From Thermoanaerobaculia bacterium (GTDB taxonomy: Bacteria > Acidobacteriota > Thermoanaerobaculia > Gp7-AA8), in assembly GCA_035544735.1 (NCBI GenBank), contig DATKCD010000093.1, positions 86 to 64,085 on the forward strand: DNA of 64,000 bases, given 5' to 3'. Every line of letters begins with the position of its first letter. Within the stretch, counting starts at the first letter, position 1. Positions 6,633 through 60,518 of the stretch are shown in pieces. Under the pieces are notes generated by a model, which had not been told where the DNA came from, did not search any database, and saw only the letters and a program-made list of their open reading frames with translations. Position numbers and translations under genes: made by a program.

Positions 6633-6649
6633 GTAGCCACGAAACGCGC

Positions 6650-7074: not shown

Positions 7075-7289
7075 CCGGCGCCGCCCGAGGCACGGGCGGA
7101 CGATCGACTCGTAAGTGGCATAGGACTCATAAATTCGACCTTGTTCGCCGGCGGACATCTGCCAGGACCCGACCGCCGGGCCGGATCCCGCTCGCGGCCG
7201 CCGGCGCGCTCGCCCGCTCCGCCCTGCGGTAGACTTCCCGCCGCGCCCCGGTCGGGGGCGCCATCTCCCTCCGGAAAGGACCCACGACG

Positions 7290-10577: not shown

Positions 10578-10612
10578 GCCGGGCTTCGCGAAGCCAACCC
10601 CGGGATGCGTGA

Positions 10613-12031: not shown

Positions 12032-12058
12032 TTCGCGCGACTCCCGGCCCGCCGCCCG

Positions 12059-12301: not shown

Positions 12302-12405
12302 GCGGAGGAGAATATCAGAGCGTTCCCCTCGCTCCCGCCGGCGGCACGAAAACTCTCCGAGGCGCGGGCCGTATGAAGGGTCAGAAACGAGAACGGAGGT
12401 TCCCG

Positions 12406-13194: not shown

Positions 13195-13198
13195 CGCG

Positions 13199-14389
13199 TC
13201 ACCTGCCGCCGACGCTCTCGCTCGATCGGATGGACGCGGCGGCGCGATCGAGGCGCATCCGTGTCGCCGGGACCTTGGCGGAATAGCGCTCGGTCTCGGG
13301 GAGCGACACGATCAGACCGCTGCGCATCCGCTTGACGTTGTGGCCGCCGCCGTTGTAGAGCGCGGCGGTGAGACGCTCGAGGCTCTCGTCGGGGGCGCCG
13401 AGGGCGCGGGCCTGGCCGAGCTTGGTGTCGACGTGCTGCACCAGGAAGCGGGCCATCGCCGGCGGCGAGAAGCGCTCGTCGAGCTCTGAAGCGAGGACGA
13501 CCCCCGCTTCGTACGCACGGCTCTTCGCGATCGCTTCCGGATCTCCGCCGAACCGCGCGCGCAGAACCGCGTCCCGCCGCGCGAGCAGGTCCCGCTGATA
13601 GCGCCTCCAGCTCGTCCGCTGCAGCTCGATCTCGCTCCGGTAGCCGCTCCGTGCACGCTCGTGGATCTCTTCGAGCTCGGGCCGCGGGGCGCCTCGACCG
13701 AGCACCGCTTCCAGATCGGTGAGCATCCGGAGGTTGCGCTGCTCGTCGCGCCGGATGGCCTCGAGCCACGCCTCGTCACCCCATCGCTCGAGCAACAGCA
13801 GCTCGTCCACCCCTTCCCTGCGGTAGCGGAACGCGTCGGCGAGCATCTCGGCGGCCTTCCCGCCGATGCGCTCGTCCGGGCCCGCTTCCAGCAGCATCGA
13901 CGCGATTCGCGCCACGTCGCCGAGCGGCTTCTTCATAATGTAGGCGCGGGACCCGCGGAGGTAATCGTCGGTGACGTGGAGCGGCCCGGTGAATCCCTCC
14001 GCGATGTAGGCGACCGGGGTCGCCTGCGCGAGGCCGACCGCTCCGGCTTCGGACACCAGCAGGATCCGACCGTTGGTCTCCGCGTGCGCGATGGCCAGAA
14101 GCAGCGTCAGACGGTCCGACCCTCCTTCCGCGGCGGCGCGCGAGAGCACGTGCACGAGCCTCCCCGCATCCCGGGTCCACAGCGTCGCGAGCTCCTCCGC
14201 GAGAGCGCGCTCGCGTACCGTCAGCGGATACTCCGGATCGTGCTCCGGAACCGTGAATACGACCGCCCGGGGGGCCGAGCGCTTCGATCGCTTCGCTCTC
14301 GCCGCCCCCTTCGCCGCGAGCGCTTCGAGCGCCCCGACGAACAGCAGGACGGCCACGGCCCCATACACCACTCCTCTGTCCGACCGCAT
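13199..14389 (-). CDS. Lytic transglycosylase (SLT)-like domain protein, membrane anchored
   Basis: ORF trimmed to MRSDRGVVYGAVAVLLFVGAL (TM). SLT-like motifs AIAHAETNG, GAVGLAQ and ALYNGGGHNV, separated by a long helical insert. Confidence 0.55.
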   Translation of the reverse strand: MRSDRGVVYGAVAVLLFVGALEALAAKGAARAKRSKRSAPRAVVFTVPEHDPEYPLTVRERALAEELATLWTRDAGRLVHVLSRAAAEGGSDRLTLLLAIAHAETNGRILLVSEAGAVGLAQATPVAYIAEGFTGPLHVTDDYLRGSRAYIMKKPLGDVARIASMLLEAGPDERIGGKAAEMLADAFRYRREGVDELLLLERWGDEAWLEAIRRDEQRNLRMLTDLEAVLGRGAPRPELEEIHERARSGYRSEIELQRTSWRRYQRDLLARRDAVLRARFGGDPEAIAKSRAYEAGVVLASELDERFSPPAMARFLVQHVDTKLGQARALGAPDESLERLTAALYNGGGHNVKRMRSGLIVSLPETERYSAKVPATRMRLDRAAASIRSSESVGGR

Positions 14390-14496
14390 CCCGCCGCACC
14401 TCCTCCACTTCCCTTCCCGGGCGGAGAAGGGATTGATCTTCGAGTCGAGTCCCAGTGTACCGGATCGGCTGGCCCTTTGGGATAATCGCTCCCCCG

Positions 14497-14868
14497 ATGC
14501 CCACCCGCGGCCGCCGCATCTCACCCGACGAGTTCGAGCGCCTCGTCGAAGAAGCCCTCGCGGGATTACCGGCCGAGTTCCGCGAGCTGCTCGAAAACGT
14601 CGCCATCGTCGTCGAGCAGGAGCCGACAGACGAGGACCTCGAGATCTCGGAGGGCGACGGCGAGCTGCTCGGGATCTTCCGCGGCGTCGCGCGCCCCGAT
14701 CGGAGCTGGAACCAGCTCCCCTCGCTGCCGAATCAGATCAGCATCTTCCGCGGGCCCATCCTCCGGGTCAGCCGCTCGCGAGCCGAGGTGGTCCACGAGA
14801 TTCGCGAGACCGTGGTCCACGAGCTCGGCCACTTCTTCGGGCTCGGCGATCACGAGATGCCGTTCTGA
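14497..14868 (+). CDS. Small zincin-like metallopeptidase family protein (DUF1025-type)
   Basis: C-terminal 123 aa of ORF 14455..14868, starting at the ATG for MPTRGRR. HExxH site VVHELGHFFG and terminal GDHEM. Confidence 0.8.
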   Translation: MPTRGRRISPDEFERLVEEALAGLPAEFRELLENVAIVVEQEPTDEDLEISEGDGELLGIFRGVARPDRSWNQLPSLPNQISIFRGPILRVSRSRAEVVHEIRETVVHELGHFFGLGDHEMPF

Positions 14869-14881
14869 TGCGTCGCCGGCG

Positions 14882-15376
14882 CTACTCGTCGATGACGAAC
14901 TCGAGAGTCTCGACCTCGGATCCGCCCATGGAGACGTCGACCTGATAGGTTCCGGGCGCCCAGTCCGCGGTCTGTTCGACGGTGAAGCGGATCCGTGTCG
15001 AGCCCGGCTCGACCTCGAGCCGCTGCCGCAGGAGGGTCTTCTCTCCGCGGCGCCAGACGGCGCTGGCCGCGGAGCCGGGAGGAGCCTGCTCGAGCTCGAG
15101 GATGAGATGGATCGGGGCGCCCGCGCGGAACCGCGCCGCGTCGGCTTCGAGAGAACCGTCGGGGCCGAGCCGGCCGCCGAGCCGGACTTCCCGAACCAGA
15201 GGGGGACCTCCGATCTCGATGGTGCGATCGACCTGCTCGCCGCCGAGGTCGGTCGGGGCAGCCGCGGCCGCGGGGGGCGGCGCGGAATCGCGCGCTGCGG
15301 CCTCGATCGACTCCTCCCGGCAGGCCGCGAGAGACAGAATGACGAGGCCGAAGAGTGCAACGCGTCGAGCGCTCAT
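14882..15376 (-). CDS. Lipoprotein, hypothetical
   Basis: Last 164 aa of ORF 14882..15934. MSARRVALFGLVILSLAAC lipobox, Ala/Pro linker, then a beta-rich domain. Confidence 0.6.
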   Translation of the reverse strand: MSARRVALFGLVILSLAACREESIEAAARDSAPPPAAAAAPTDLGGEQVDRTIEIGGPPLVREVRLGGRLGPDGSLEADAARFRAGAPIHLILELEQAPPGSAASAVWRRGEKTLLRQRLEVEPGSTRIRFTVEQTADWAPGTYQVDVSMGGSEVETLEFVIDE

Positions 15377-15426
15377 GAGCTCTCCCGATGAACTCAAGAA
15401 TGCGAATTCGGTCGGGACCGGGCGGA

Positions 15427-15693
15427 TCACCCTTTCCGCGCGGCCCTGGTGAGCATCGCCGTGGCGATCGCCAGAGTCGCCACACCCGCCGCGAGCCAGC
15501 CGCGATTCCGTCTCGCGTTCCTGGCGCCGCGCCGGACGCTCATCGCGGTCCGAAGCTGGGCGCGATCGAATTTCCGATCGACCTTCTGCGCGACCTTCCG
15601 TCCTCCCGCCGACGAGAGAAGATGGCTCACGCCCCAGATCGTCGCGATGGAGGCGGCGCGCCCCGCCATCTGTTTCGTGTCCCATCTCATCAT
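15427..15693 (-). CDS. Small basic protein with C-terminal hydrophobic helix (hypothetical)
   Basis: 88-aa reading from ATGATG at 15693 with high G/C third-position bias. Same direction as the downstream lipoprotein gene. No recognisable SD. Confidence 0.35.
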   Translation of the reverse strand: MMRWDTKQMAGRAASIATIWGVSHLLSSAGGRKVAQKVDRKFDRAQLRTAMSVRRGARNARRNRGWLAAGVATLAIATAMLTRAARKG

Positions 15694-15884
15694 CGATACC
15701 CCGGATGATGAAATGCAACGCCGCTGCCAGATCGGCCCGCTGGCGGATCGACGCCCTATCCCGCCCCGACTCCCCATTCAACGGGCCGGCCGACTCGAAG
15801 GAAAGAGCCCGCCGCCGGATCGGGTTACGCTTTCGTGAAGCGCCGCGTCGGCTGTGTGCTGCCGTGGTAGCCTCGTTTCCGATC

Positions 15885-17231
15885 ATGGCGCAACCACTCA
15901 GATTCTCCCGCGCGCTTCGAGCGATGATCAGCATCGCGTGCGGCGTGGCGCTGTTCGCGGGGTGCGGAGAAGGAGTGGATCAGACCGCGGCCGTGCGCCC
16001 GCCGGCGGTCGAAGCGGTCGAAGCGCGCGAAGGGGAGCTTCCGCTGAGCGAGCGCGTGAGCGGCCGGGTGCGCGCCGAGAACCAGGTTGCGATTCACGCG
16101 GAGATCGAAGCGCCGGTCGTCGAGGTGCTCGTTCGGAACGGAGAGCAGGTGCGCCGGGGACAGCCGCTGGTGCGGCTCGACGGGCGGGGGCTGCGGGAGC
16201 AGCTGCGGCAGGCGGAGGCGAGCGTACGTCTGGCCGAGGGATCGGCGGCGGAGGCGCGCGCTCGGGTCGCGGAGCTCGAAGCGGAGATGCGGCGGACGCG
16301 CGCGCTGGCGGCCGAGCAGCTCGTCAGCTCGCTCGAGCTGGAGACGCTGGAAGCCCGCGTGGCCGCGGCCAGCGCCTCGGCGGACCAGGCCGATTCCCGC
16401 ATCGAGCAGGCGCGCGCGACCGCCGACGAGCGACGCTCCGCCCTCGCCCGCACCGTCGTCCGCGCGCCGGTCGAGGGCCGCATCGGACAGCGCAACGCCG
16501 AAGTCGGCATGATCGCCTCTCCCGGCACCCTGCTCTTCCTGATCGGCGATTTCGACGAGCTCACCATCGAGATCCCCCTGACCCAGCAGATGCTCGAGCA
16601 CGTCCGCGAGGGCGATCCGGTCCGCATCTCCTCCCCCGCTCTCGGCGAGGCCGGAATCGACGCGACCCTTTCGCGCATTTCCCCGTTCCTCGGCCGAACC
16701 ACGTTCAGCACGACCGGCGAGATCGATCTCCGGAACGACGATCGCCGCCTCCGTCCCGGAATGTTCGTCACCGTGGACATTCTCTACGGCGAGAGTGGCC
16801 GCGCGACTCTGGTGCCGGCCAGCGCGATCTGGGAAGACCCGCGCACGCTGGAGATCGTGATTTTCGCCATCGATCTCCCGCCGGGCCCGCCGGGCGCGGC
16901 GGATGATCCCCCTTCGCCCACGGCTCACCCGGTGACTCGTCGTCCGGTCGAGGTGCTCGCCGAAGGCATGGGGACGGTCGGCGTGCGCGGGATCGAGCCG
17001 GGGGAGTGGGTCGTGGTCATGGGACAGCATCTGATCTCCGAGCGGGAGAGCGAGACCGCGCGAGCGCGGCGCGCGGGGTGGGAGCGGGTGCTCGCGCTCC
17101 AGGGGCTGCAGCGCGAAGACCTTCTGGCCGGATTCCTCGCCCGGCAGCAGCAGACCGCGAAAGCCGAGGGAATCGTGCCGCCTTCCAGCGAAGAGTACCT
17201 CGGCGGCGGAGCGGCCGCCGCAGGGCAGTGA
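15885..17231 (+). CDS. RND efflux periplasmic adaptor (membrane fusion protein, HlyD/AcrA family)
   Basis: Trimmed to MAQPLRF...ISIACGVALFAGC (lipobox). Coiled-coil hairpin (LRQAEASVRLAEG...VAELEAEMRR) and beta-barrel VRAPVEGRIGQRN. Confidence 0.85.
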   Translation: MAQPLRFSRALRAMISIACGVALFAGCGEGVDQTAAVRPPAVEAVEAREGELPLSERVSGRVRAENQVAIHAEIEAPVVEVLVRNGEQVRRGQPLVRLDGRGLREQLRQAEASVRLAEGSAAEARARVAELEAEMRRTRALAAEQLVSSLELETLEARVAAASASADQADSRIEQARATADERRSALARTVVRAPVEGRIGQRNAEVGMIASPGTLLFLIGDFDELTIEIPLTQQMLEHVREGDPVRISSPALGEAGIDATLSRISPFLGRTTFSTTGEIDLRNDDRRLRPGMFVTVDILYGESGRATLVPASAIWEDPRTLEIVIFAIDLPPGPPGAADDPPSPTAHPVTRRPVEVLAEGMGTVGVRGIEPGEWVVVMGQHLISERESETARARRAGWERVLALQGLQREDLLAGFLARQQQTAKAEGIVPPSSEEYLGGGAAAAGQ

Positions 17232-17243
17232 GGGCCGACTCGA

Positions 17244-20200
17244 ATGGCAGCCATCACGAACGCCTCGATCCGCCGCCCCGTCGCGACCTCGATGATCTAT
17301 CTGATGCTCATCGTGGTCGGAGTCGTCTCGTTCCGCGCCCTTCCCATCGACCTTCTGCCGGCGGTCGAGTTCACCCAGTTGACGGTCAGGGTCCGGTATC
17401 CCAACGTCGGTCCCGAAGAGATCGAGAGAATCATCACCGATCCGATCGAGAACGCGGTGTCGGGCCTGCCGAATCTCGAGCGGATGACCTCGGTCTCGGA
17501 AGAGGGATCGAGCCGCGTTCGGCTCGAGTTCGCTCGCGGGACGAACATCGATGAAGCGGCGAACGATCTGCGCGCCGCGCTCGACCGCCTTCGGGACGAG
17601 CTGCCCCTCGAAGCCGATCCCCCCGAGATCCTGAAGCTCGATCTCGACCGCATCGAGGTCGTCAGCATGTACGCGACCTCCTCGCACCCGCTGTCCGAGC
17701 TGACGCGGATCCTGGAGGAGGACCTGGCGCGGCGCTTCGAGCAGATCCCCGGCGTCGGCGCCATCCAGGTGAGGGGCGGGATCTACCGCGAGATCCGGGT
17801 CGAGCTCGATCGCGAGCGGCTCCAGGCTTCGGGCCTGACCGCGCTCGACGTGCAGGAGGCGATCGCGAGGGAAAACGTCACCCTTCCGGGCGGAAACGTC
17901 AAGAGCGGATTCAGCGACCTGTACGTGCGCACCTCGGGCGAGTACGTGTCGGTCGACCAGATCGCCTCGACGGTCATCACGACGATCGACGGGTTCCCCA
18001 TGCGCGTGGCCGACGTGGCCCGGGTGCGCGACGGACACGAGGACGTGCTGTATCTGGTCGAGGTGAACGGAGTCCCCTCGGTCAGCCTCGGGATCCAGAA
18101 GCAGAGCGGGGCGAACACGGTGGAGGTCGCCCAGGAAATCCGGCGCGAGGTCGCGAGGATCAACGCCGAGAGCGACGAGATCCACCTGACGATCTTCTCG
18201 GACCAGAGCGAGTTCATCCGGCAGTCGATCGCGAGCGTGCGCAACTCCGCGATCTGGGGCGGACTCCTCGCGATCGTGATTCTCTACGTCTTCCTGCGGA
18301 ACCGCTCGAGCACGTTCATCATCTCTCTGGCGATCCCCATCTCGGTGATCTCGACCTTCGGGCTGCTCTACTTCGGCGGAATGACGCTGAACCAGATGAC
18401 CTTCGGAGGTCTCGCGCTCGGGGTGGGGCTGATGGTGGACAACGCCATCGTCGTGATCGAGAGCATCGTGAGGAAGAGAGAGGAGACGGACGCGAGCTCG
18501 GTCGAAGCGGCCGCGGTGGGAACGCGCGAGGTGGCCGGAGCGATCGTGGCCTCCACGCTGACGAGCTGCGTGATCTTTCTTCCGGTCGTATTCACCCGCA
18601 CGACGAGCGGCGCTCTGTTCCAGGCGCTCGCGCTCGTGGTGGTCTTCGCCCTCGTCTGTTCGCTAATGGTCGCGCTGACCCTGGTCCCGATGCTCGCGGC
18701 GAGGCTGCACCGCTCGGGCCGCGCGAGAACGCGCCGTAACCTGTTCGCGCGCGCCGAGACGTGGTACACGGGAAGGCTGCGCCGCGCGGTCCAGCGGCGA
18801 GGCCTGGTGTTCGCCGCCACCGGAGGGCTGCTCCTGGCGGCCCTGCTGCTGTGGCCGCTCATCCCCGTCGAGCTCGCCCCTCAGACCGACGCCGACGAGA
18901 TCGACGTCGACATCGACATGGCGCAGGGGACCAACATCGCCGTGGTCGGGACCTACGTGCGCGAGCTGGAATCGCGCGTCCGACGGCTGCTCTCACCCGG
19001 CGACGTCGAGCTGGTGACGACCGAGGTCCGCGGCAGCCATGCCGAGGTCGAGCTCAAGCTCGCCCCGCAGGGAAGGCGCGCGGTCTCGGCCACGGAGATC
19101 GCCGACCGCCTCCGCTCCAGCCTCGAGGGTCAAATTCCGGGCGCCGAGATCCGCGTCGACGCGCAGCCCGGTCTCTGGATCCTGCGAAGGATCTTCAGCT
19201 CGGGCGGCGGAGAGGAAGCGATCGAGCTCGAGCTCCGGGAATGGGACCTCGATCGCGCCGACGAAACGGCCCGCGCCATGCTCAGGCGCATCGAGGGGAT
19301 CGCGGGCATCACGGACGTCCGGATCAGCCGGCGGGAGGGACAGCCGGAGGAAAACCTCGTGATCGACCGCGCCCGCATCGCCGAGGTGGGGCTCTCCGCG
19401 CGCGAGGTCGCGCGCACCCTGCAGGCGAATCTCGGAGGAATGGAAGCCGGCAGGCTCCGCCAGGGCGGCGAAGAGTATCCGATCGTGGTCCGGCTCCGTC
19501 CGGAGGACCGCCTTCTCGCGGAGGACCTGCGCAACGTCTCGCTCCGTACCTCGACGGGCGGCACCGTGCCGCTCTCGACGCTGGTCCGCCGGGAGCGGAG
19601 CCGAGGCCCGACCGCGATCGGCCGCGTCGACGGTCAGCGCGTCACCTACATCACCGCGAGCCTCGAGGGGGGCCTCGCCCTGGGCGAGGCGGTCGAGCGC
19701 ATCCGCGAGGCGCTCACCGAGGTCCCGCTGCCCGAGACCTCGTCGCTGCTGTTCGGCGGCGAGTACCAGGAGCAGCAGGAGGCGCGCCGCGATTTCCTCA
19801 TCGCGATCGCGATGGCGATCGCTCTCGTCTACATGCTCATGGCGGCGCAGTTCGAGCGTTTCCTCGACCCGCTCGTCGTCATGCTCTCGGTTCCCATGGC
19901 TCTGGTCGGCGTCGTGCCGGCGCTGCTGCTCACCGGAACGACGCTGAACATGCAGAGCATCATGGGGCTGATCATGCTCGTCGGCGTCGTCGTGAACAAC
20001 GCCATCGTCTTCGTCGAGACGATCAACCTGCTCCGCCGCGAACGCCACCTCGCCGCCCCCGAAGCCGTCGTCGAGGCAGGCCGCCTCCGCCTCAGACCCA
20101 TCCTGATGACCACCTCCACGACCGTGCTCGCGCTCCTTCCTCTCGCCATCGGGATCGGCGCGGGCGCCGAGATCCAGGCCGCGTTCGCGCGCGTCGTCAT

Positions 20201-20348: not shown

Positions 20349-20671
20349 AGGCATTGAAAAGCATTGAGGATCTATGATTGATGATTGCAAACCATTGATG
20401 ATCTATGATTGATGATTGATGATTGATGATTGAAAGGCATTGAGGATCTATGATTGATGATTGATGACTGATGGCCGAGGATGGTTGAGCGGCTACCGAT
20501 GGTCACCGATCACCGTCCCGCAGACTCGCATCGATCACGCGTACGAGCCCCCAACCATCAATCCTCAAATCATCAATGCTGTTCGATCATCAATCATCAA
20601 TCATCAATCATAGATCATCAATGTCTTTCAATGGTTTGCAATCATCAATCATCGATCATCGATCATCAATG
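20349..20671. repeat. AT-rich palindromic element made of inverted TGATTGA heptamer arrays (copy 1)
   Basis: Left arm 20349-20473 is (TGATTGA)n with GCATTGA/TTGCAAA punctuation. Right arm 20551-20671 is its reverse complement. Perfect inverted blocks: 20375-20398 with 20628-20651 (24 bp), and 20393-20430 with 20586-20623 (38 bp). The left arm is about 34% G+C by hand count. Confidence 0.9.
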
Positions 20672-21427
20672 GGGTTCGCGACGATCACGCTCAACCGTCC
20701 GGAGAAGCTGAATGCGTTCGCCGGGACGATGCGCGAGGAGCTGATCGCCGCGCTCGATCGCGCGCGGGACGAGCCGGGCGTCCGCTGCGTCGTGATCACC
20801 GGCGCCGGACGTGCGTTCTGCGCCGGAGGAGACGTGGAGGCGATGAGCCGCATGCGCCGGGAGGGAGACCTCGACGGCTTCATGCGGCTGCTCGATGCGG
20901 GAGCGAGGATCGTCACGGCGATCCGTGAGATGCCGAAGCTCGTGCTCGCCTCGATCAACGGAGTCGCCGCGGGAGCCGGCTGCAATCTCGCCCTCGCCGC
21001 CGACGTCAGGATCGCATCCTCGGAGGCGACGCTCGTCGAGAGCTTCGTCCGGATCGGCCTGCATCCCGACTGGGGAGGGACGTACTTCCTGCCGCGGCTG
21101 GTCGGGACTTCGCGGGCGATCGAGCTGATGGCGACGGGAAGAGTCGTCGGCGCCGCGGAGGCGCTCGAGATCGGGATGGTGGACCGGGTGGTGGAACCGG
21201 GGCGGCTTTCCGCGGAGACCACGGAGCTGGCGCGCGCGGTCGCGTCGGGCCCGCCGGGCGCGATCGCCGACCTCAAGCGCGCCGTTCTCGCCGCGGAGGG
21301 CGGCCGGCTCGCCGAACAGCTCGAGCTCGAGAAAGAGCACCAGCGACGGGCTTTCAACTCCGCCGATGCGGCCGAAGGGATCGCCGCCTTCCTCGAGAAG
21401 AGACCTCCCCGATTCGACGGCCGTTGA
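20669..21427 (+). CDS. Enoyl-CoA hydratase/isomerase (crotonase) family protein; start uncertain (20669, 20621 or 20576)
   Basis: FATITLNRPEKLNAF, VVITGAGRAFCAGGDV, ASINGVAAGAGCNLALAADVRI. The ORF is open upstream through the repeat arm. Confidence 0.85.
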   Translation: MGFATITLNRPEKLNAFAGTMREELIAALDRARDEPGVRCVVITGAGRAFCAGGDVEAMSRMRREGDLDGFMRLLDAGARIVTAIREMPKLVLASINGVAAGAGCNLALAADVRIASSEATLVESFVRIGLHPDWGGTYFLPRLVGTSRAIELMATGRVVGAAEALEIGMVDRVVEPGRLSAETTELARAVASGPPGAIADLKRAVLAAEGGRLAEQLELEKEHQRRAFNSADAAEGIAAFLEKRPPRFDGR

Positions 21428-28549: not shown

Positions 28550-28562
28550 AATCGGACCGCCG

Positions 28563-29027
28563 AATCCCGGCTGCGACCGGCGACCTCACCCTGACGTCTC
28601 CCTCTCCCCGTCCGGGATCGCGCAGGTTTTTTGCGCGGGCGTTTCTTCGGGGAGAGGGTCGGGGTTGAGGGGTCGCTGCGAGCCCTCTCGATTCAGCAGC
28701 CACGAAGCGAGGCTCGCGCCGCGGATCGTGCAGAGCGGAGAGCTCGTGCAGCGGCTCCGCCATGATCATGATCTCCGGCTCGCGGCTTCGTTCTGGCGTC
28801 TGCACGCCACGCGACGCGAGCTCCGCGCTTCGGGTGGCGCGAATCGCGGCTGCGACCGGCGGCCCCTCACCCTGACCCTCTCCCCGAATCTCACTCGCAG
28901 CCGTTTCAGCGACATCCCGGCGGGGAGAGGGAAAACGCGGCTCCGCCATCATCATGATCTCCGGCTCGCGGCTTCGTTCTCGCGTCTGCACGCCACGCGA
29001 CGCGAGCTCCGCGCTTCGGGTGGCGCG
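28563..29027. repeat. Tandem duplication of a composite REP-like element (279 bp + 186 bp)
   Basis: Each unit starts aatcSCggctgcgaccggcg..cctcaccctgac..ctctcccc with a partner ggggagaggg. Each ends in a 91-bp core (28751-28841 and 28937-29027) with 89/91 identical bases. Confidence 0.85.
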
Positions 29028-29078
29028 GCGGCGGCCGCTCCCGCTCAGCCTCTTCCGGGTTCTGCGTTCTGCGTCCGT

Positions 29079-29132
29079 GACGCCCGAGACGCTCCAGACG
29101 CTCCAGACGCTCCAGACTCCCCGGACGCCGGG
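29079..29132. repeat. Nonamer tandem repeat (GACGCTCCA family), about 6 units, in the ileS upstream region
   Basis: gacgcccga gacgctcca x3 gactccccg gacgccggg. Same unit as the arrays at 59344-59588. Confidence 0.75.
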
Positions 29133-29195
29133 CCCGGAGATTGAAATCTCCGACCCCGGGTGCTAGTTTGCGCCTCCATCGGTGAGGGGTCGTCA

Positions 29196-38131: not shown

Positions 38132-38779
38132 TCAGGGCGTCGGCTGCGGCGCAGCCGCGTTCCAGTTCACATGGTAAACGATCCCGTCGTCGAAGTAGAC
38201 CGCGGCGGCTCCGCCGTCCTCCCGGGGGAAGATCCAGACCGAGTAGAGCCGATCGTCCTGGCGCGCGTGCTTGATCCAGTCCTCGCGGGGGGTCCCGAGG
38301 CGGGAGGCGACCTCGCGCTCGCTCATGCCGGCGCGAACCGAGGCGAAGTCGTCCATCGAGACGAACCTGCGCGACTGCGCCATGTTCAGACGTCTGCGGG
38401 CGTCGTCGTTGTCGGGATCGACCGCGAGAGCGGAGCGGTAGAGCTCGATCGCCCGCTCGTAGCGCGCGAGCAAGCTCATGTAGGCATCGCCGAGCCGGAT
38501 CCGCTCGTTCGCGAGAAGCCTCGCCGCGCGTGGATCACCGGTCCGGCCATGGTACTCGCGCAGCCGGCCGAGCAGGGGGGCGAGGGTCGGTTCGAGGCGC
38601 TGCTGGTTCCGCAGATGGATCTCCACGTGCTCGCTCCGCGAGGCGCCGGGCGGCGGCTGAGGCAGGACGCGCCGCAGCGACTCGACCGTCTGGTATTCAG
38701 CCCAGAGCGAGGTCCACTCCCGATCGTTCGGCCGCGTCGGGAGGGCCGTGGCACAGGCAGCCGAAAGCAGCAGAATCAT
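38132..38779 (-). CDS. Lipoprotein with TPR-like and SmpA/OmlA (BamE-like) segments; start uncertain
   Basis: MILLLSAAC lipobox at ATG 38779. LGDAYMSLLARYERAIELYRSALAVDPDN; FASVRAGMSEREVASRLGTP. The ORF stays open upstream through the repeat arm. Confidence 0.65.
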   Translation of the reverse strand: MILLLSAACATALPTRPNDREWTSLWAEYQTVESLRRVLPQPPPGASRSEHVEIHLRNQQRLEPTLAPLLGRLREYHGRTGDPRAARLLANERIRLGDAYMSLLARYERAIELYRSALAVDPDNDDARRRLNMAQSRRFVSMDDFASVRAGMSEREVASRLGTPREDWIKHARQDDRLYSVWIFPREDGGAAAVYFDDGIVYHVNWNAAAPQPTP

Positions 38780-38780
38780 T

Positions 38781-39160
38781 AAGGCATTGATGATTGAGGA
38801 TTGATGATTGATGATTGAAGGCATTGTTGATTGATGATTGATGATTGAGGATTGATGATTGAAAAGCATTGATCATGGATGACTGAAAGGCATTGAAGGT
38901 GATTGATGAATCGGGATCGATCCTCGGATCGGTGAGCTCCGCTCCGACTGCTGAATGTTGATTTCTGCCGGCTGATTGCGACGACGATCTCTACTACGCA
39001 TCGCTGCCTTTCAATCATCAATCATCAGGCTTTGCAATCATCAATCCTCAATCCTCAATCATCAATCCTCAATCATCAATGCTTTGCAATCATCAATCAT
39101 CAATCATCGATCATCAATGCCTTGCAATCATCAATCATCGATCATCAATGCTTTTCAATG
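38781..39160. repeat. AT-rich palindromic element made of inverted TGATTGA heptamer arrays (copy 2)
   Basis: Left arm 38781-38912 is (TGATTGA/GGATTGA)n. Right arm 39006-39160 is (TCAATCA/TCAATCC)n. A perfect 28-bp inverted block pairs 38784-38811 with 39055-39082. Same GCATTGA and TTGCAA(A/G) punctuation as copy 1. Confidence 0.9.
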
Positions 39161-40270
39161 TCTCTTGAGGCCGTCGACCACGGGGGCGATCCGATCCTCG
39201 AGGCGCGCGCCGAACTCGGCGCGGATCTCGAAGATCCATCCGTAGAGGAGCTCGTTCACTACCGAATTGACGATGTCGTTGCGATCGGTCGATCCCGACG
39301 AGATGAGGTTGTTGAGGAGCTGATCGAAGTCGACCCGTCCTTCGTTCATCAGGTTGATCCCGCTCAGGTAGGGGAGGACCTCGGGGGAGAGATGGAGGAC
39401 GACGCGATCGAGGAAGTCGTAGATGTGATCTCCGATTTCCTGATAGACGATGCCGAAGATGAGCTGGAAGGCGGAATTGTAGCTTTCGACGCGCGATTCG
39501 AGCTCCATTTCGCGCTCGAGCTCGCTGCGGCGGGCGTCGCGCCGGATGCCCTCTTCGTCCTCGACCAGGTTGACGGCGAGCAGGGCCCAGAGGGTGCGGC
39601 AGGTCTGGAAGTTCGACAGATAGCTGCGCGCGCAGATCGATCCGACCGACTGCGGCTCGGAGAGCAGCTCGAAGATGATCGTCTCGTCCTCGCGCAGATC
39701 GAGATGGTAGATCCGCGAGTCTCCGTCGGCGGCCTGCCGGAGGGTGCGTTCCATCTTTCCGACTCCGCGAGAGACGAGCGACCATTCGGTGATGCGTCCG
39801 ACTCCGTCGAGCAGAAGGCGCTCGGTCTGGATGGGAAGGCGCGGGATCTCGCGGTCGAAATCCGCGGTGAACTCGATCGTGTAGCTGCCCGAGCGGTAGG
39901 CAAGGGCGTGGATGACGACATCCGAGACCTGGCGCTCGAGCGCGCGGACCAGCTCCTCCGGCTTCAGGTAGCCGAGCTCGCAGAGGACCGAGCCGATTCG
40001 CTGGTGGCTCGTGGCGCTCTCGGTGGCGCGGATGTAGTCGTGAATCCCGATCTCTCCGTTGCGCAGGAGCACTTCCGCGAGCCCGAGGTCGGGATCGGAG
40101 GTGGCTGCGTAGACGATCTTGCCCCGGCGGAGATAGATGCTGTCGTGCCGGCCGATGGCTTCGAGCGTGACGACCGCCGTCTCGGCGCTCCGGATCAGGG
40201 ATCGGCAGAGATCGGGCACCGTCGTCTCGGCCAGCGTTCCCTGAATGGTCAGCTCTTCGCTCATCGGCAC
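39155..40270 (-). CDS. DUF4388 (PATAN-type) domain protein
   Basis: N-terminus LTIQGTLAETTVPDLCRSLIRSAETAVVTLEAIGRHDSIYLRRGKIVYA fits the DUF4388 pattern (G-L, hydrophobic block, G-x-L, G-x-iv-A). Starts 1 nt after the GGDEF gene stop. Confidence 0.75.
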   Translation of the reverse strand: MPMSEELTIQGTLAETTVPDLCRSLIRSAETAVVTLEAIGRHDSIYLRRGKIVYAATSDPDLGLAEVLLRNGEIGIHDYIRATESATSHQRIGSVLCELGYLKPEELVRALERQVSDVVIHALAYRSGSYTIEFTADFDREIPRLPIQTERLLLDGVGRITEWSLVSRGVGKMERTLRQAADGDSRIYHLDLREDETIIFELLSEPQSVGSICARSYLSNFQTCRTLWALLAVNLVEDEEGIRRDARRSELEREMELESRVESYNSAFQLIFGIVYQEIGDHIYDFLDRVVLHLSPEVLPYLSGINLMNEGRVDFDQLLNNLISSGSTDRNDIVNSVVNELLYGWIFEIRAEFGARLEDRIAPVVDGLKRH

Positions 40271-53121: not shown

Positions 53122-53307
53122 TAGGGAACCTCTGCACAAGTCGGAGGGGGTGTCGTTGCGGGCGCCGCCGAGGGCGAATGCGCGCCGCCGCGACGCAGGC
53201 GATGCGGGGCCATCGTCGAGGAGCGGCGGCGCGCAGTCGGCCCGGCGCCGCCCGCAACCCGGAGGGCTGATGGCGCCACCCCCTCCGACTTGTGCAGAGG
53301 TTCCCTA
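53122..53307. repeat. 186-bp GC-rich palindrome with perfect 31-bp terminal inverted repeats
   Basis: tagggaacctctgcacaagtcggagggggtg (53122-53152) is exactly complementary to 53277-53307. Inner complementary blocks are 53155-53170/53243-53258 (15 of 16) and 53180-53191/53223-53234 (12 of 12). Confidence 0.85.
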
Positions 53308-55786: not shown

Positions 55787-58561
55787 TTACGCCGCTTCGT
55801 CGCCGGAGGCCTCGCCGTCTTCGACCCCTTCATCGTCCGGGTCGTCGCGGCCGGGCGGCTCCTCGGGAGGCTCCTCCGGCGGCTCCTCCGGCGGCTCCTC
55901 GGGAGGAGGCGCCTTCGCGGGAGGCTCCACGGGCGGCGGCTCGGGCGGCTTCGGGCCAGCGGAGGGGGGCTCCTCGCGAGGCGGCTCCGGCTCGGGACGG
56001 CTCCCGGGTTCGGGGCGACCCTTCTCGTCCGGAAGCGGCGCGGGGAGTCGCACCGGAGGCTGAGTCGTCGTGACCGGCGGCGGTGGCGAAGTGCGCGTCG
56101 GGAAGTTTCCTCCTCCGAGGACCGGCTCCGGCCGCTCGCGAGTCTCGGTCGTAATGGGATCGGTGGTCGTGGGATAGGGATAGGGATAGGGATCGGGATA
56201 GGGATAGGGGTCGAGAGGATCGACGCCGAGCGGGAGGCCGTCGGGACCGAGGATCGGCATCCCGTAGGCGTCGACCAGGAAGGGCTCGCGGATCTGATGG
56301 ATGGGACAGGGGTGGCGCGGCTCGGTGCCCGCCTTGAACGCTTCGTCGACGAGCTGTCCGCGCGGACACTGAGGGGTCGACAGACCGCCGGTCGCCGCGT
56401 CGGTCTCGACGAAGACGATGCCGCGCGGCACGGGGAACTCGGAGCTCTCTTCCCGCTCCGTGATGTCGTTCATGAAGCGGGCCCAGATGGGGAGGGCTCC
56501 CTCCGAGCCGGAGACTCCGACCGGCGCGTTGTCGTCGAATCCGATCCAGGCGAGAGCGAGCGTGCGCGGCGTGAAGCCGACGAACCAGGAGTCGCGTTTC
56601 TCGTTGGTCGTTCCGGTCTTGCCAGCGGCCGTTTTGCGGAAGCCGAGGGAGCGGGCGCCGGCGCCGGTTCCGCGGTCCATGACGCCTTCCATCAGATGAA
56701 CGCCGAGGAAGACGTCGCGGGGGGGAAAGACCTGAACGGGAGTGATGTCGGTGTGGGAGACGGCGTCGCCGTTCTCGTCGCTGACCCAGCGGATCGCACG
56801 GAGCGGAAGGCGGGAGCCCATGCGGGCCATGGTGTTGTAGGCCTCGGCGATCTCGACGGGAGGGACTTCGACGGCGCCGAGGAGGATCGCCGGGTTGGCG
56901 TCGAGCTCGGAATCGATGCCGAGGGCGTTGGCGGTGCGGATCACGGACTCGACGCCGGTGGAAAGTCCCAGGCGGACGGAAGCGGAGTTCATCGACTTCT
57001 CGAGCGCCTGGCGGACCGTGACGACGCCGTAGTAACGCCCCTCGTAGTTTCCGGGCGACCAGTCCCTGGCGAAGCGGCGCTCGAGGACGAAGCGGGAGTC
57101 GTTGACCAGGGTTGCGGGGGTGATGTTCTGGTGGGAGAGGCTCGGCTCGAAGGCGGCGAGGTAGACGAAGGGCTTGAAGAGCGATCCGACCTGACGGCGG
57201 GCGCTCGTCGCGCGGTTGAACTGGCTGCGCTGATAGTCGCGCCCGCCGACGAGGGCGCGGATCTCTCCGGTGTCGACGTCGACGGCGATGATGGCGCCCT
57301 CGAGCGGCTGCTCCGCGCGGCGTAGCCGGCTCGAGGACTTCTCCAGGCGCGCGAGGCCATTCTCCAGTCGCCGCGCCGCCGCCGCCTGCCGGTCGAGGTC
57401 GATCGCCGTGTAGACGCTCAGCCCCCGCCCCTCGACCTCGTCGATCCCGTAGTCGCGCCGCAGCTCCTGCAGGACCCGATCGACGTAGAACGGGATCGAC
57501 CCGAGACCGCTCCCTCCGCGATCGGGCTTCTCCGGCAGCGGCTCTTCGAGCGCCGCCTCGAGCTCTTCGTCCGAGATCTTGTCCCGACGCGCCATCTGCT
57601 TGAGCACCGTGTCGCGCCGCTTCTTCGCCGCCTCCGGATCCTCGAACGGAGAAAAATTGTTCGGCGACGGGATCATCCCGGCGAGCAGCGCCGCCTCGGC
57701 GGCCGAGATCTCCGCAACCGGCTTGCCGAAATAGAACCTCGAGGCCTGCCCCACACCGAGAATCGAGATCGAACGATTCCTTCCGAGGTAGATGTCGTTC
57801 AGGTACGCTTCGAGGATCTCCTCCTTCGAGTATTTCGCGTCGAGAATCAGAGCCATGAACGCCTCGACGACCTTCCGCCGGAGCGTTCTCTCGTTGGTCA
57901 GGTAGTAGTTCTTGACCAGCTGCTGAGTCAGCGTCGATCCCCCCTCGGATGCGCTTCGGCTCCGCACGTTCCGGACCACGGCTCGGAGGACTCCGACCGG
58001 GTCGACGCCCGGATGCGAGAAGAAACGGGCGTCTTCCGCCGTCACCACCGCGTCGATCAGATGCTGCGGCACCGAGTCGAGCGCGACCGGGCTCCGGTTC
58101 TCGAGCTGCTCTCCCATGATCGAAGTGAGCAGCTCCGGCTCGAGCGACGCATCTCCCGCGCCCTCGGCCGAGCCGATCGACTCCCCCTCCATGACCAGCC
58201 GCACCACTTTCGCCTCCTGGTCCCCCGCCGGATGAGCGAAGGCGCGCAGGTGGATCTCCCATCCGTCGTCTCCCGTCCGGAACGTTCCCGGCCGGTCGAT
58301 CTCCTCCGACTCGCGGTAGCCGAGCCGGGCGAGCTTCTCGCGCAGCGCCTCACGCCCGATCGGCGACCCGGCCACCAGCGGAAGTCTGTCGGTGTAGATC
58401 CTGCTGGGAAGTGAGACCCGCCGGACCTCGAAGGTCCGAACCGCCTCGAGATAGACCCAGGCGGCCATCGCGATAATAGCGAGAGCGAGGATCAGGGTGC
58501 CGATGGCGACGGTCTGGAACACGCTTCTGCGGCTGGGGAGTCTCGGTGCGAAATCGGGCAT
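55787..58561 (-). CDS. Bifunctional penicillin-binding protein 1A family (GT51 transglycosylase + transpeptidase) with Pro-rich C-terminal tail
   Basis: EDARFFSHPGVD, GGSTLTQQL, RKVVEA (GT51). SLFKPF (SxxK), SMN, KTGTT (transpeptidase). Tail PYPYPDPYPYPYP...(EEPP)n. Confidence 0.95.
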   Translation of the reverse strand: MPDFAPRLPSRRSVFQTVAIGTLILALAIIAMAAWVYLEAVRTFEVRRVSLPSRIYTDRLPLVAGSPIGREALREKLARLGYRESEEIDRPGTFRTGDDGWEIHLRAFAHPAGDQEAKVVRLVMEGESIGSAEGAGDASLEPELLTSIMGEQLENRSPVALDSVPQHLIDAVVTAEDARFFSHPGVDPVGVLRAVVRNVRSRSASEGGSTLTQQLVKNYYLTNERTLRRKVVEAFMALILDAKYSKEEILEAYLNDIYLGRNRSISILGVGQASRFYFGKPVAEISAAEAALLAGMIPSPNNFSPFEDPEAAKKRRDTVLKQMARRDKISDEELEAALEEPLPEKPDRGGSGLGSIPFYVDRVLQELRRDYGIDEVEGRGLSVYTAIDLDRQAAAARRLENGLARLEKSSSRLRRAEQPLEGAIIAVDVDTGEIRALVGGRDYQRSQFNRATSARRQVGSLFKPFVYLAAFEPSLSHQNITPATLVNDSRFVLERRFARDWSPGNYEGRYYGVVTVRQALEKSMNSASVRLGLSTGVESVIRTANALGIDSELDANPAILLGAVEVPPVEIAEAYNTMARMGSRLPLRAIRWVSDENGDAVSHTDITPVQVFPPRDVFLGVHLMEGVMDRGTGAGARSLGFRKTAAGKTGTTNEKRDSWFVGFTPRTLALAWIGFDDNAPVGVSGSEGALPIWARFMNDITEREESSEFPVPRGIVFVETDAATGGLSTPQCPRGQLVDEAFKAGTEPRHPCPIHQIREPFLVDAYGMPILGPDGLPLGVDPLDPYPYPDPYPYPYPTTTDPITTETRERPEPVLGGGNFPTRTSPPPPVTTTQPPVRLPAPLPDEKGRPEPGSRPEPEPPREEPPSAGPKPPEPPPVEPPAKAPPPEEPPEEPPEEPPEEPPGRDDPDDEGVEDGEASGDEAA

Positions 58562-58594: not shown

Positions 58595-59446
58595 TCATGC
58601 CTGAACCGCGATCGCGAGGATCCGTCCCGCTCCGGCGCCGCTGCGACGATACGAATGGAAGATCGAGCCGTCACAGCGGGTGCAGAGGGCCGAATCGACG
58701 ATGTTCGCCCGATCGATCCCCCGCTGCTCCAGAATCCGGCGGGTCAGGCCCGCCAGGTCGAAATGGGGCCGCGGTCCGCGCGTTCGATCGACGAAAGGGT
58801 CCACCGAATCGTAACGGGCGGCAAAAGCCTCTACCACTTCGTCACCGACTTCGAAGCAGCAGGCACGGATCGCCGGACCGAGCCAGGCGCGGGCGCTCGC
58901 GGCGGAGAACGACGAAAGACGCTCGAGCTCGTCGAGTGTCCGCGGCACGACCCCCTGCGCGGCGCCTCTCCATCCCGAGTGGAGGTTCGCCAGAACGCGG
59001 TGCTCGGGATCGACCACGGTCACCGGAAGGCAGTCGGCGACCTTGATTCCGAGCGCCATGCCGGGACGATCGGTCCAGAGCGCGTCGCAGGTGCCGAGCT
59101 CCCGCCACCCGGTCGATGGACTCGCGGCAAAGACGAGCTCGGTCCCATGGACCTGCGTGCTGGTGACCAGTCCGATTCCAGCTCCCCACCGCCGCTGCAG
59201 GAACGTGGTCAGCGCGTCGAGGTCCTCCCCGGCGAGCCGACCGCTGAAATCGACCGAGGTGTAGAAGAGTCCGCATCGGTCGGGAAGCCGCGGGGCGAAC
59301 ACCACGCGCCCGAGGCCCGGAACCCTCTCGACGGACCACGGGGGCGTCTGGAGCGTCTGGAGCGTCTGGAGCGTCTGGAGCGTCTGGAGCGTCTTGGGCG
59401 TCTTGGGCGTCTTGGGCGTCTTGGGCGTCTCGGGCGTCTCAGGCAT
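58595..59446 (-). CDS. pgeF: Peptidoglycan editing factor PgeF (YfiH/DUF152, laccase-domain protein) with repeat-encoded N-terminal tail
   Basis: VHGTELV, ADCLPV, HSGWRG, CCFEVG, CTRC...FHSYRR. ATG at 59446 is preceded by AGGAGG 7 nt upstream. No other in-frame ATG occurs before the conserved core. Confidence 0.85.
   Translation of the reverse strand: MPETPETPKTPKTPKTPKTLQTLQTLQTLQTLQTPPWSVERVPGLGRVVFAPRLPDRCGLFYTSVDFSGRLAGEDLDALTTFLQRRWGAGIGLVTSTQVHGTELVFAASPSTGWRELGTCDALWTDRPGMALGIKVADCLPVTVVDPEHRVLANLHSGWRGAAQGVVPRTLDELERLSSFSAASARAWLGPAIRACCFEVGDEVVEAFAARYDSVDPFVDRTRGPRPHFDLAGLTRRILEQRGIDRANIVDSALCTRCDGSIFHSYRRSGAGAGRILAIAVQA
59344..59442. repeat. Nonamer array, 11 units (GCGTCTGGA x5, GCGTCTTGG x4, 2 variants), inside the pgeF 5' coding region
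   Basis: Read directly from the sequence. In frame it encodes PETPE(TPK)4(TLQ)5 on the minus strand. Confidence 0.9.
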
Positions 59447-59516
59447 CCGGGAGCCTCCTGGGTTCTGGGGCATCACATCACACATCGCACACGGCGTCCT
59501 GGGCCTCTACAGGTTG

Positions 59517-59588
59517 CAGACGCTCTGGACGCTCCAGACGCTCTGGACGCTCCAGACGCTCCAGACGCTCCAGACGCTCCAGACGCCC
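59517..59588. repeat. Nonamer array, 8 units (CAGACGCTC/TGGACGCTC), inverted relative to 59344-59442
   Basis: Abuts the stop codon (59589-59591) of the upstream DUF4388 gene. Positions 59546-59586 are perfectly complementary to the (GCGTCTGGA)5 run. Confidence 0.9.
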
Positions 59589-60413
59589 TCACGCCGTGCT
59601 GCGGAGCAGGGTGGCGATGTCGTTGCGGAGCTGCTCGGCGACGGCGGAGCCGCGGAGCAGGGCGGTGGTCTTTTCGAGCTCGCGGATCATCGCACGGATG
59701 GCGAGCGGACCGCTTCCCGAGCGGATCGCCTCGACGGCCGAGCCGAAATGCTTCTCGATCGATTTCGATCCGTTCGCGCCGATGTGCTGCTCGGCGACCC
59801 CGCGGATCTGCCGCGCCAGGTCGACCAGCGCTTCGACTTCGGTGTCGTCCGCTTCGGCGGGCGCCTCGTCGGCTTTCGAGCGCGTCAGCCCGACCAGCTC
59901 CGCGGTCAGCATTCCGTAGAGAATCTTCGCGGCCTCGAACGACGAGAGCTCGAGCGATTGCGCGATCCCGGCGACGCTCTGCTGCCCGTCGATGCGCGTC
60001 ACGAGCAGCCACTCTTGCGGATTGAGCGTGATCTGTTCGTGGCGGTTGTCGCGTGGGAGCAGGATCGGGATCATGTCGACCGAGGGGATCTTCCTCGACA
60101 ACACCTTCCATTCGTCGGCCCGCCGCGCAGCCTCCATCAGAAGGTTGGTGTTCGACCGGGTGATCGTCTGCTCGGTCGTCTCTTCGGTCTGGGCGAAGAC
60201 GAAGTCGCCCTCCTTCCAGATCGCCAGGGCGTAGACCGCTTCCTCCCCCGTCATCTCGCCGCTCTCGGCGTGAATGATCTGACCGTTGCGCAGGAAGATC
60301 AGCCCCTCTTCATCCCCTCGAGTCAGCGTGAACTTTCCGGTCTTGCCGGAAACGCTGACGAGCTGGATGATATCGGGAAGCGGAAGCTCCTTGAGCGAAC
60401 CCTGAAAGGACAT
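59589..60413 (-). CDS. DUF4388 (PATAN-type) domain protein
   Basis: MSFQGSLKELPLPDIIQLVSVSGKTGKFTLTRGDEEGLIFLRNGQIIHAESGEMTGEEAVYALAIWKEGDFVF, a textbook DUF4388 N-terminus. Start taken at ATG 60413. Confidence 0.8.
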   Translation of the reverse strand: MSFQGSLKELPLPDIIQLVSVSGKTGKFTLTRGDEEGLIFLRNGQIIHAESGEMTGEEAVYALAIWKEGDFVFAQTEETTEQTITRSNTNLLMEAARRADEWKVLSRKIPSVDMIPILLPRDNRHEQITLNPQEWLLVTRIDGQQSVAGIAQSLELSSFEAAKILYGMLTAELVGLTRSKADEAPAEADDTEVEALVDLARQIRGVAEQHIGANGSKSIEKHFGSAVEAIRSGSGPLAIRAMIRELEKTTALLRGSAVAEQLRNDIATLLRSTA

Positions 60414-60518
60414 TCGACTCCGTTGCATCGGGGCGGCTAATCCGCCCGATGTCGCTGAACCCAAACGATTTCCGAGCGACGACAACCTGAGGCAGCAAGC
60501 GTAGCGCATCCCCCCCCG

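Follow-up and report, generated by a model that had tools for sequence, protein, structure and literature searches.

Inverted nonamer arrays around the start of pgeF in a Thermoanaerobaculia bacterium, best read as one copy of an intergenic hairpin class of its lineage

Short tandem arrays between bacterial genes, such as the short tandemly repeated repetitive (STRR) elements and the TAACTGA repeats, have to our knowledge been on record for decades, with no function that is generally accepted. STRR units (CCCCAGT, TTGGTCA, CAACAGT) occur in heterocystous cyanobacteria. RNase III cleaves the hairpins of Correia elements, and the inverted arms of foldback (FB) transposons are built of tandem short repeats. 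Here we describe a pair of inverted nonamer arrays between a DUF4388/PatA_N gene and pgeF in a stretch of 64,000 nucleotides from a Thermoanaerobaculia bacterium (Acidobacteriota; contig DATKCD010000093.1, positions 86 to 64,085), hereafter the window (G+C 68%), and compare it with the closest described systems. STRR hairpins lie between hupS and hupL of Nostoc, Anabaena and Lyngbya, where a role in transcript stability or translational coupling has been proposed (PMC2670836); STRR units have been listed in PMC2408588. In the 5'-untranslated region (5'-UTR) of hmw1A of Haemophilus influenzae, a heptamer simple sequence repeat (SSR) forms one arm of a hairpin that is cleaved by RNase III, and the repeat number tunes expression (PMC12721329). 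The TAACTGA repeats of marine Beggiatoaceae, some cyanobacteria and Bacteroidetes are proposed post-transcriptional elements (PMC4679880), and in Borg elements tandem repeats create intrinsically disordered protein regions (PMC9879509). The pgeF pair is best read as one copy, built of nonamers, of a class of intergenic hairpins common in the Thermoanaerobaculia lineage, each consisting of two inverted arrays of a 6-, 7- or 9-nt unit that reach from an upstream stop codon to a downstream start codon between co-directional genes.

At the DUF4388-pgeF junction, Tandem Repeats Finder (TRF) reports one period-9 array at 59341-59439 (11.0 copies, 95% matches), which resolves by its unit boundaries into 11 nonamers at 59344-59442, and a second one at 59517-59586 (7.8 copies, 86% matches), which resolves into 8 inverted units spanning 59517-59588. 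Read on the plus strand, the first consists of GCGTCTGGA x5, GCGTCTTGG x4, GCGTCTCGG and GCGTCTCAG, and the second of CAGACGCTC/TGGACGCTC x7 plus CAGACGCCC. The two-unit 18-mer has 16 matches in the window, where shuffled sequence leads one to expect 0.23. On the mRNA strand, the stop-proximal array (arm 1) reads GGGCGTCTGGA(GCGTCTGGA)x3, GCGTCCAGA, GCGTCTGGA, GCGTCCAGA, GCGTCTG, and the last five units of the start-proximal array (arm 2) pair with it perfectly. The arrays are inverted relative to each other, with arms of 71 nt that are 90% complementary. A first-pass annotation of this stretch, made from the letters alone, had placed these inverted arrays correctly in all coordinates. The perfect complement of 41 nt that it reported (59546-59586) is real and slightly short, the longest one being 43 nt (59342-59384 with 59546-59588); its loop of ~150 nt holds for the gap between the perfectly paired segments, whereas the spacer is 74 nt and the 71-nt arms are separated by 105 nt. 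Variant units are clustered in runs (GGA x5, TGG x4), and because identical variants occur in runs we infer that the arrays grow, and would also turn over, by replication slippage.

The orthologous junction was compared in seven related loci from six assemblies; as one of them (L124) duplicates another (L123), six loci enter the comparison. The closest relatives of PgeF, at 60-68% identity, come from Thermoanaerobaculia metagenome-assembled genomes (MAGs) and have no N-terminal tail. The order DUF4013-DUF2085-PatA_N-pgeF-PBP1 is kept in five relatives, L119 having no PatA_N gene, and the position of the PatA_N stop is kept as well; this synteny suggests that DUF4388-pgeF-PBP1 is likely an operon. 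The first-pass annotation had proposed to compare pgeF 5' ends among relatives, and the comparison finds complementary inverted arrays at the junction in five of the six loci (five distinct assemblies), one of them with an arm inside PgeF (L126). Four unit families are involved: ATCTGCA (L117, L123/L124), TAGTCCC (L125), TCAACGA (L126) and ACAACGA (L116). The elements measure from 51 to 342 nt and differ in their units, and the sole empty site, L119, is also without the upstream gene; relatives without a large element have gaps of 44-51 nt. The units follow the phylogeny only partly, in that L117 and L123 share a unit and L126, from the same clade (76-80% protein identity), has a different one. 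Junction units recur elsewhere on the same contigs (L125 7858-8120, L116 1148-1179), and it appears that a few unit families would be reused at many sites per genome.

Table 1. Positions of the arrays and neighbouring genes in the window, and the arrays at the PatA_N-pgeF junction of related loci.
Feature	Position	Strand	Description
Stop-proximal arm (arm 1)	59517..59588	minus	8 nonamers, G-rich, directly after the upstream TGA
Spacer (loop of the predicted hairpin)	59443..59516	minus	74 nt; holds AGGAGG (59454-59459) and the pgeF ATG (59444-59446)
Start-proximal arm (arm 2)	59344..59442	minus	11 nonamers, C-rich and G-poor on the mRNA
DUF4388/PatA_N protein gene (upstream)	59589..60509	minus	stop TGA 59589-59591 abuts arm 1
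pgeF	58595..59446	minus	Cu-oxidase_4/YfiH family, 283 aa
Class A penicillin-binding protein gene	55787..58561	minus	33 nt downstream of pgeF
Third array of the pgeF nonamer	29079..29128	plus	GACGCTCCA x5.6; 68 nt upstream of the ileS ATG
Heptamer element	20353..20670	plus	(ATTGATG)n-spacer-(CATCAAT)n
Second heptamer element	38781..39149	minus	(ATTGATG)n-spacer-(CATCAAT)n, equal polarity
L123/L124 junction			GATTGCA x2 after the PatA_N stop; GCAATCT x3.9 ending 5 nt before the pgeF ATG
L117 junction			51-nt miniature of the L123 unit after the PatA_N stop; abuts the pgeF ATG
L125 junction			GGGGCTA/GGGACTA x4 after the PatA_N stop; CCTAGTC x4.4 before pgeF
L126 junction			TCGTTGA x2-3 directly after the PatA_N TAG; AACGATC x4.7 inside the annotated PgeF N-terminus (MTNDQRSTINDQRRHTW)
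L116 junction			short GTTGTCG/TCGCTCG run after the PatA_N stop; AACAACG x15 before pgeF
L119 junction			no PatA_N gene; no arrays on either side

The same architecture is seen at other junctions. One independent MAG of the Acidobacteriota, from long reads (L010), has its gap from the gyrB stop to the gyrA ATG filled with an inverted pair of the pgeF nonamer family: ~6 units of GCGTCT(AGG/GGA/AGA) after the gyrB stop, a spacer of ~37 nt and ~15 units of (C/T)CAAGACGC. Arrays of AAGTAGC are shared by L123, L126 and L010. Within the window, an AcrB-like gene and a crotonase-like gene flank one heptamer element, which extends from 7 nt past the stop of the former to the ATG of the latter; the other element is flanked by a second DUF4388 gene (stop 39155-39157) and by a lipoprotein-like gene (ATG ~38772). 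The parallel that had been drawn between these heptamer elements and the pgeF pair is real, and it extends to the junctions of the relatives. The stem begins 0-7 nt past the stop codon of the upstream gene in every co-directional example. In most examples 0-28 nt separate the end of arm 2 from the start codon that follows, and in three arm 2 ends at this start or within 2 nt of it (L010, where 2 nt separate the array from the gyrA ATG, window position 20670, and L117), and the genes behind the arrays usually have no Shine-Dalgarno (SD) sequence. Well-developed elements are predicted to be long RNA hairpins with z from -5 to -17; for L116, L117 and L123 the values are about -2 to -3. Array hairpins are not confined to co-directional junctions or to 7- and 9-nt units, because L117 also carries an inverted hexamer pair (CGAGCC x5.3 at 1570-1601, CGGGCT x4.8 at 1669-1697) in a divergent TonB-DUF4013 gap and an inverted nonamer pair (CCACTAGGA / GTCCTAGTG, 407-483) downstream of the TonB gene.

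The elements share a strand polarity. On the mRNA strand, the start-proximal array has less G than C in all 15 arrays (G 0-26%), and the stop-proximal arm has more G than C in 10 of 11 paired cases, the exception being the short arm 1 of L116; about nine of the sites in this count are independent. Such uniformity is unlikely to have arisen by chance. It points to a constraint linked with transcription or translation, and a strand-symmetric process acting on DNA does not predict it either.

This polarity bears on a first alternative, namely that the arrays are neutral or selfish repeat DNA. Slippage-prone arrays would then pile up where they are harmless (gaps between genes, a tolerant PgeF N-terminus), possibly spread by a copy mechanism, and template switching would maintain the arms with no regulatory role. 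Template-switch correction of quasi-palindromes is an established mechanism from studies of E. coli. Quick turnover of units at the orthologous site, even within the clade of L117, L123 and L126, fits such an origin, as do spacers that are not conserved between copies. On the other side stand the G-poor start-proximal arrays, the precise stop-to-start placement seen at many sites, and the persistence of a hairpin at the orthologous operon junction in spite of unit replacement. We regard a neutral origin as possible, if doubtful.

An element acting at the level of DNA (protein sites or a cruciform), or an assembly artefact, is hardly credible. The GCGTCT core recurs every 9 bp and could be a protein site, and short-read assembly is error-prone at repeats. 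However, the unit sequence differs between genomes at the orthologous site, unlike that of a conserved protein site, and a polarity relative to transcription is unexpected for a symmetric DNA site. As to an artefact, contigs of four independent runs stop short of the array boundaries or break at them, one of these runs (X4) reading 11 nt into arm 1, and the architecture is also present in the long-read MAG and in five other assemblies.

Is the start-proximal array translated? Arm 2 makes up codons 2-34 of pgeF, MPETPETPKTPKTPKTPKTLQTLQTLQTLQTLQTPPW, that is, PET x2, PKT x4 and LQT x5. The gene product carries the Pfam domain PF02578 (E = 3.7e-54), and His-100, Cys-139 and His-156 of its His/Cys/His site are invariant in 55 sequences. 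Gly-46 and Arg-47 are invariant in 55 homologues, and Trp-37 is nearly invariant in a 19-sequence alignment; the homologues start 1-12 residues before the equivalent tryptophan, and the length of their N-terminus before it varies. Upstream of the array, in-frame starts are available at ATG 59485, GTG 59476, ATG 59473 and ATG 59446, the preceding in-frame stop ending at 59507. The remaining in-frame starts for the PgeF core, GTG 59305 and GTG 59302, both lie after Trp-37, Gly-46 and Arg-47. A start downstream of the array is ruled out because it would have to use one of these two GTGs and delete invariant residues, and a functional PgeF start must therefore read through the array. ATG 59446 has AGGAGG at 7-nt spacing, and an SD at the right spacing together with an in-frame ATG arises in ~0.1% of shuffled spacers. 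The claim that the repeat is translated is thus supported at the level of sequence, every in-frame start that spares Trp-37, Gly-46 and Arg-47 lying upstream of the array; it is very probable that translation turns the array into a tail of low complexity that is dispensable.

The AlphaFold2 (AF2) model of PgeF, built on the 55-sequence alignment, agrees with this assignment: predicted local distance difference test (pLDDT) values exceed 90 from residue 38, the first strand comprises residues 38-42, and residues 1-35 are modelled with low confidence (pLDDT 54-68). The conserved fold begins at Trp-37, right behind the array. A search among 5.8 billion proteins for relatives of the TPK/TLQ tail found none, its one weak match being an unrelated open reading frame (ORF) of low GC. 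The 33-residue tail is probably a tolerated by-product. Both the lack of a relative for this peptide and the differing length of homologues before Trp-37 are also in line with a neutral origin. The pgeF copy departs from the class in that its SD and ATG lie in the loop and not at the stem base, and in that its start-proximal arm is coding. A usable SD and ATG in the loop and a frame-neutral unit would have led to the absorption of arm 2 into the ORF, which would be open to it because a 9-nt unit cannot shift the frame; that slippage by 9 nt keeps the frame, as had been noted, is true arithmetically. Judged by its annotated frame, L126 appears to be a second case of an arm absorbed into PgeF, which would make two independent absorptions. 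The deposited L126 annotation (protein P0014) already covers the translated heptamer array at 2408-2464 (TNDQRSTINDQRR). There, four and a half 7-nt units happen to preserve the frame, and slippage by one unit would break the gene.

The minus strand of 59320-59610 is predicted to fold at -177 kcal/mol (z = -10.6), with SD and ATG in the loop, so that the folding check proposed at the outset upholds the suggestion of a long stem on the mRNA. The arm-arm duplex of ~70 bp has a predicted energy of -135 kcal/mol, and in the partition function the outer 4-5 units of each arm are nearly always paired (P unpaired 0.00-0.04). Masking of the SD by the stem is rejected, as SD and AUG are predicted to be equally accessible with or without arm 1. 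Because arm 1 leaves their accessibility unchanged, masking of initiation is not predicted for the pgeF copy; what the model predicts is a long duplex starting a few codons into the ORF, which may act as a barrier to elongation and is of a size suited to RNase III. A scan of the element for promoters and terminators detected nothing promoter-like and, on the gene strand, nothing resembling a terminator, and an intrinsic terminator is rejected on this ground. A search against Rfam returned nothing but a tRNA.

We consider the chances about even that the pgeF pair is a functional hairpin, transcribed inside an operon and grown by slippage. The element would be transcribed within the DUF4388-pgeF-PBP1 operon, and its G-rich stop-proximal arm would pair with the G-poor, C/A-rich start-proximal arm into the predicted duplex. 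Such a duplex may be a cis-acting post-transcriptional element, long enough for RNase III and a barrier that ribosomes must unwind. It would set the expression of pgeF and of the downstream penicillin-binding protein (PBP) relative to that of the upstream gene, and its strength would vary with the number of units and with any melting of the stem base by ribosomes that terminate at the neighbouring stop codon.

Several observations weigh against this functional reading. The accessibility of the initiation region hardly responds to arm 1 (P unpaired with vs. without it: 0.38 vs. 0.39 for the SD, 0.59 vs. 0.56 for the AUG). The antisense strand is predicted to fold better than the mRNA strand, both for the pgeF element (-197 vs. 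-165 kcal/mol) and for the nonamer element of L010 (-139 vs. -110 kcal/mol). Variant units in the inner part of one arm have no mirror image in the other (TGG x4 in one, CCAGA in the other). Because of these unmirrored units and the better antisense fold, no sign of selection for pairing as RNA extends past the outer 43 bp. These three points, accessibility, antisense folding and unmirrored inner units, are what neutral repeat DNA would lead one to expect. Spacers are unrelated between nonamer copies, the 74-nt spacer at pgeF having no similarity to that of L010, and the array at 29079-29128, C-rich on the mRNA like arm 2 of pgeF, is a lone copy with no inverted partner. An RNase III cut in the predicted stem would fall inside the pgeF ORF, an odd design. 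Slippage together with template-switch correction of quasi-palindromes could maintain complementarity without any function. Finally, we infer from the sequence that the junction is transcribed as a single mRNA, that the RNA folds in the cell, that RNase III cleaves it or translation responds to it, and that the arrays change by slippage.

A more specific alternative is translational coupling, in which the base of the helix joins the upstream stop and the downstream initiation region, and a terminating ribosome melts this base and frees the G-poor leader; the downstream gene would then be translated in dependence on the upstream one, across a long gap. The anatomy suits it, with arm 1 beginning 0-7 nt past the stop and arm 2 mostly ending 0-28 nt before a start, as does the scarcity of SD sequences in front of array-preceded genes; coupling has also been put forward for the hupS-hupL STRR hairpins (PMC2670836). 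At pgeF, however, the loop contains both SD and ATG, at a distance of 100 nt from the base, and their predicted accessibility is the same whether or not arm 1 is present. Coupling could thus explain the class, though not the pgeF copy, and as an account of this locus we hold it to be quite unlikely.

Tandem arrays of this length also call to mind phase-variable contingency loci, in which a change in unit number would switch or grade the activity or expression of PgeF between cells. Long near-perfect arrays are slippage hotspots, changes in a frame-neutral 9-nt unit would grade expression rather than abolish it, and the hmw1A leader provides a precedent (PMC12721329). Yet the independent assemblies L123 and L124 have identical arrays; pgeF, gyrA, ileS and the crotonase gene are housekeeping genes, atypical for contingency; similar elements stand at many unrelated junctions; and a change in unit number shifts no frame, nor does the element contain a promoter-like site. 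A contingency locus is therefore very improbable.

How does the element compare with the described systems? Like STRRs, it has a short tandem unit dispersed at many intergenic sites (here three nonamer arrays in 64 kb, plus L010), and a hairpin between co-transcribed genes, which here rests on prediction and on an operon suggested by synteny. Unlike the 7-nt STRR units, the unit is 9 nt long (its siblings 6 and 7 nt) and of unrelated sequence. STRR hosts are heterocystous cyanobacteria, whereas the present host is, by its closest protein relatives, a Thermoanaerobaculia-like acidobacterium, and the arms here are 70-140 nt long, span from stop to start and include one that is coding. Membership among STRRs fails on unit length, unit sequence and host; they are still the nearest described kind.

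The hmw1A leader is, by analogy, the best experimental counterpart. In both, a tandem array is an arm of a long hairpin, a predicted one here, whose stem length is tied to unit number. The right arm in hmw1A is a G-rich non-repeat, the array is untranslated and the gene is a phase-variable adhesin, whereas here both arms are arrays and the genes are housekeeping genes. The TAACTGA repeats resemble the present arrays as heptamers in a fixed "forward" orientation a few nt upstream of starts, where an SD is often missing; they form direct repeats with 2-6 copies and next to no inverted partners (170 sets include one indirect repeat), whereas here a complementary stop-side array is the rule. With Borg repeats the pgeF array shares a near-perfect repeat whose unit is a multiple of 3 and which adds a low-complexity, probably disordered segment to a conserved protein; unlike them, the coding repeat here is an arm of an intergenic hairpin family and is shared with non-coding sites.

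Correia/NEMIS, ERIC and REP/BIME elements and FB transposons are likewise dispersed intergenic inverted repeats that are co-transcribed and form RNA hairpins (predicted in our case). Unlike these, the nonamer copies have no fixed length or conserved internal sequence. Treated as a miniature inverted-repeat transposable element (MITE) or foldback element, the window spacer (74 nt) and that of L010 (~37 nt) are unrelated, arm lengths differ and the copy at 29079 is one-armed, although two copies in L125 do share inner-stem sequence. No direct repeat that could be a target-site duplication flanks the pgeF arms, the flanks being the stop codon and CCCCCG-TGG. The element thus falls outside the MITE type, as it lacks both a conserved internal sequence and a target-site duplication. 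Our literature search found no description of the exact repeat strings, nor of such elements in Acidobacteria or Thermoanaerobaculia. The nonamer unit, the acidobacterial host and the partly coding nature are new, and the kind, intergenic short-tandem-repeat hairpins, is known.

The pgeF nonamer is massively multi-copy in the source soil metagenome. In that metagenome (run X1), depth over the nonamer arrays is 1,000-20,000 against 47 for the flanks, and 369 contigs with many different flanks are placed on the arrays; junctions reported from the X1 k-mer contigs are other copies of the repeat and not alleles of the pgeF locus. A scan of a genome collection for GCGTCT-N3 x4 gave at least 110 loci, almost all of them unrelated coding nonamer repeats (Streptomyces, Burkholderia and others), and among the matches listed only L010 was informative. 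A metagenome scan with the exact 33-mer of the nonamer array gave 5 loci, none with the inverted architecture, and a viral scan for the nonamer gave two matches, both ordinary coding repeats. A lone 13-unit array of the pgeF nonamer family (GACGCTCAA/GACGCTCCA) lies at 6699-6805 of metagenome contig MDSW01035042.1 (L115), between convergent genes in DNA of 72% GC and beside an A/T-rich stretch, with no inverted partner.

Further repeats were seen near these arrays. Of the three array hairpins that the window contains, two come immediately after DUF4388/PatA_N genes (39155-40270, 59589-60509), possibly by coincidence. Mechanically called ORFs at 20576-21427 (MLFDHQSSIINHRSS...) and 38132-38869 (MLFNHQSSIINHQST...) cross heptamer arms, and the starts of the crotonase-like and lipoprotein-like genes could be misplaced upstream of the true ATGs at 20670 and ~38772. 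In L116, the long PatA_N-pgeF gap contains two strong hairpins at 3275-3345 (GGCCCGGGCGTCTCGCCCGGGCC and GGGACGGGCGAGACGCCCGTCCC), the loops of which carry GCGTCT and AGACGC, the core of the pgeF nonamer of the window. The 646-nt leader of ileS (28550-29195; fold z = -7.4, no match to an Rfam family) has a 91-nt segment that occurs twice, 98% identical, at 186-nt spacing (28751-28841, 28937-29027), and inverted repeats pairing 28646-28665 with 28869-28888 and 28599-28615 with 28916-28932; these repeats are followed first by (GTTCTGC)x2 and next by the nonamer array that has no partner.

Other repeats are of different kinds. A 34-nt inverted repeat (TAGGGAACCTCTGCACAAGTCGGAGGGGGTGTCG and its complement) at 53122-53155 and 53274-53307, 97% complementary with 118 nt between its arms, is not built of tandem units and is a different kind of hairpin from the arrays. 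L123 has copies of a near-perfect palindrome (TAGGGACCGGCTGCGCCGGTCCG...CGGACCGCCGCAGGCGGTCCCTA) at 6261-6325 and 10579-10642 that exactly fill gaps between convergent genes, the stem's base being formed by the TAG stops of both genes (z -7 to -8), as in a REP- or terminator-like dispersed element. In the PBP gene, C-terminal coding repeats of 12-, 15- and 24-nt units at 55852-55956 encode PEEPPEEP..., and GGGATA x6.5 at 56171-56209 encodes DPYPYPYP; these are ordinary low-complexity coding tails unrelated to the inverted arrays.

A broader proposal, which we put forward as unlikely, is that lineage-wide "zipper" hairpins of short tandem units link the stop codon of one gene with the start region of the next. 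In them, a G-poor leader would be sequestered reversibly by a G-rich anti-leader arm, so that translational coupling, or processing that depends on RNase III, is enforced over long gaps. Both arms would evolve in concert, with units replaced and complementarity and polarity kept, and the pgeF copy would exemplify the uptake of an arm into a protein. If true, control inside operons would gain a new mode of general scope, and the concerted evolution of RNA stems could be studied in a natural system. In practical terms, such arrays mislead gene callers, which either carry an ORF on through them or overlook its true start, and they are places where assemblies of short reads break. The Thermoanaerobaculia lineage offers unusually clean material, with stop-to-start inverted pairs, a consistent polarity, units replaced while pairing is kept, and two arms within a conserved enzyme. 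With these elements, the question of whether short-tandem-repeat arrays are functional RNA hairpins or a mutational by-product becomes directly testable.

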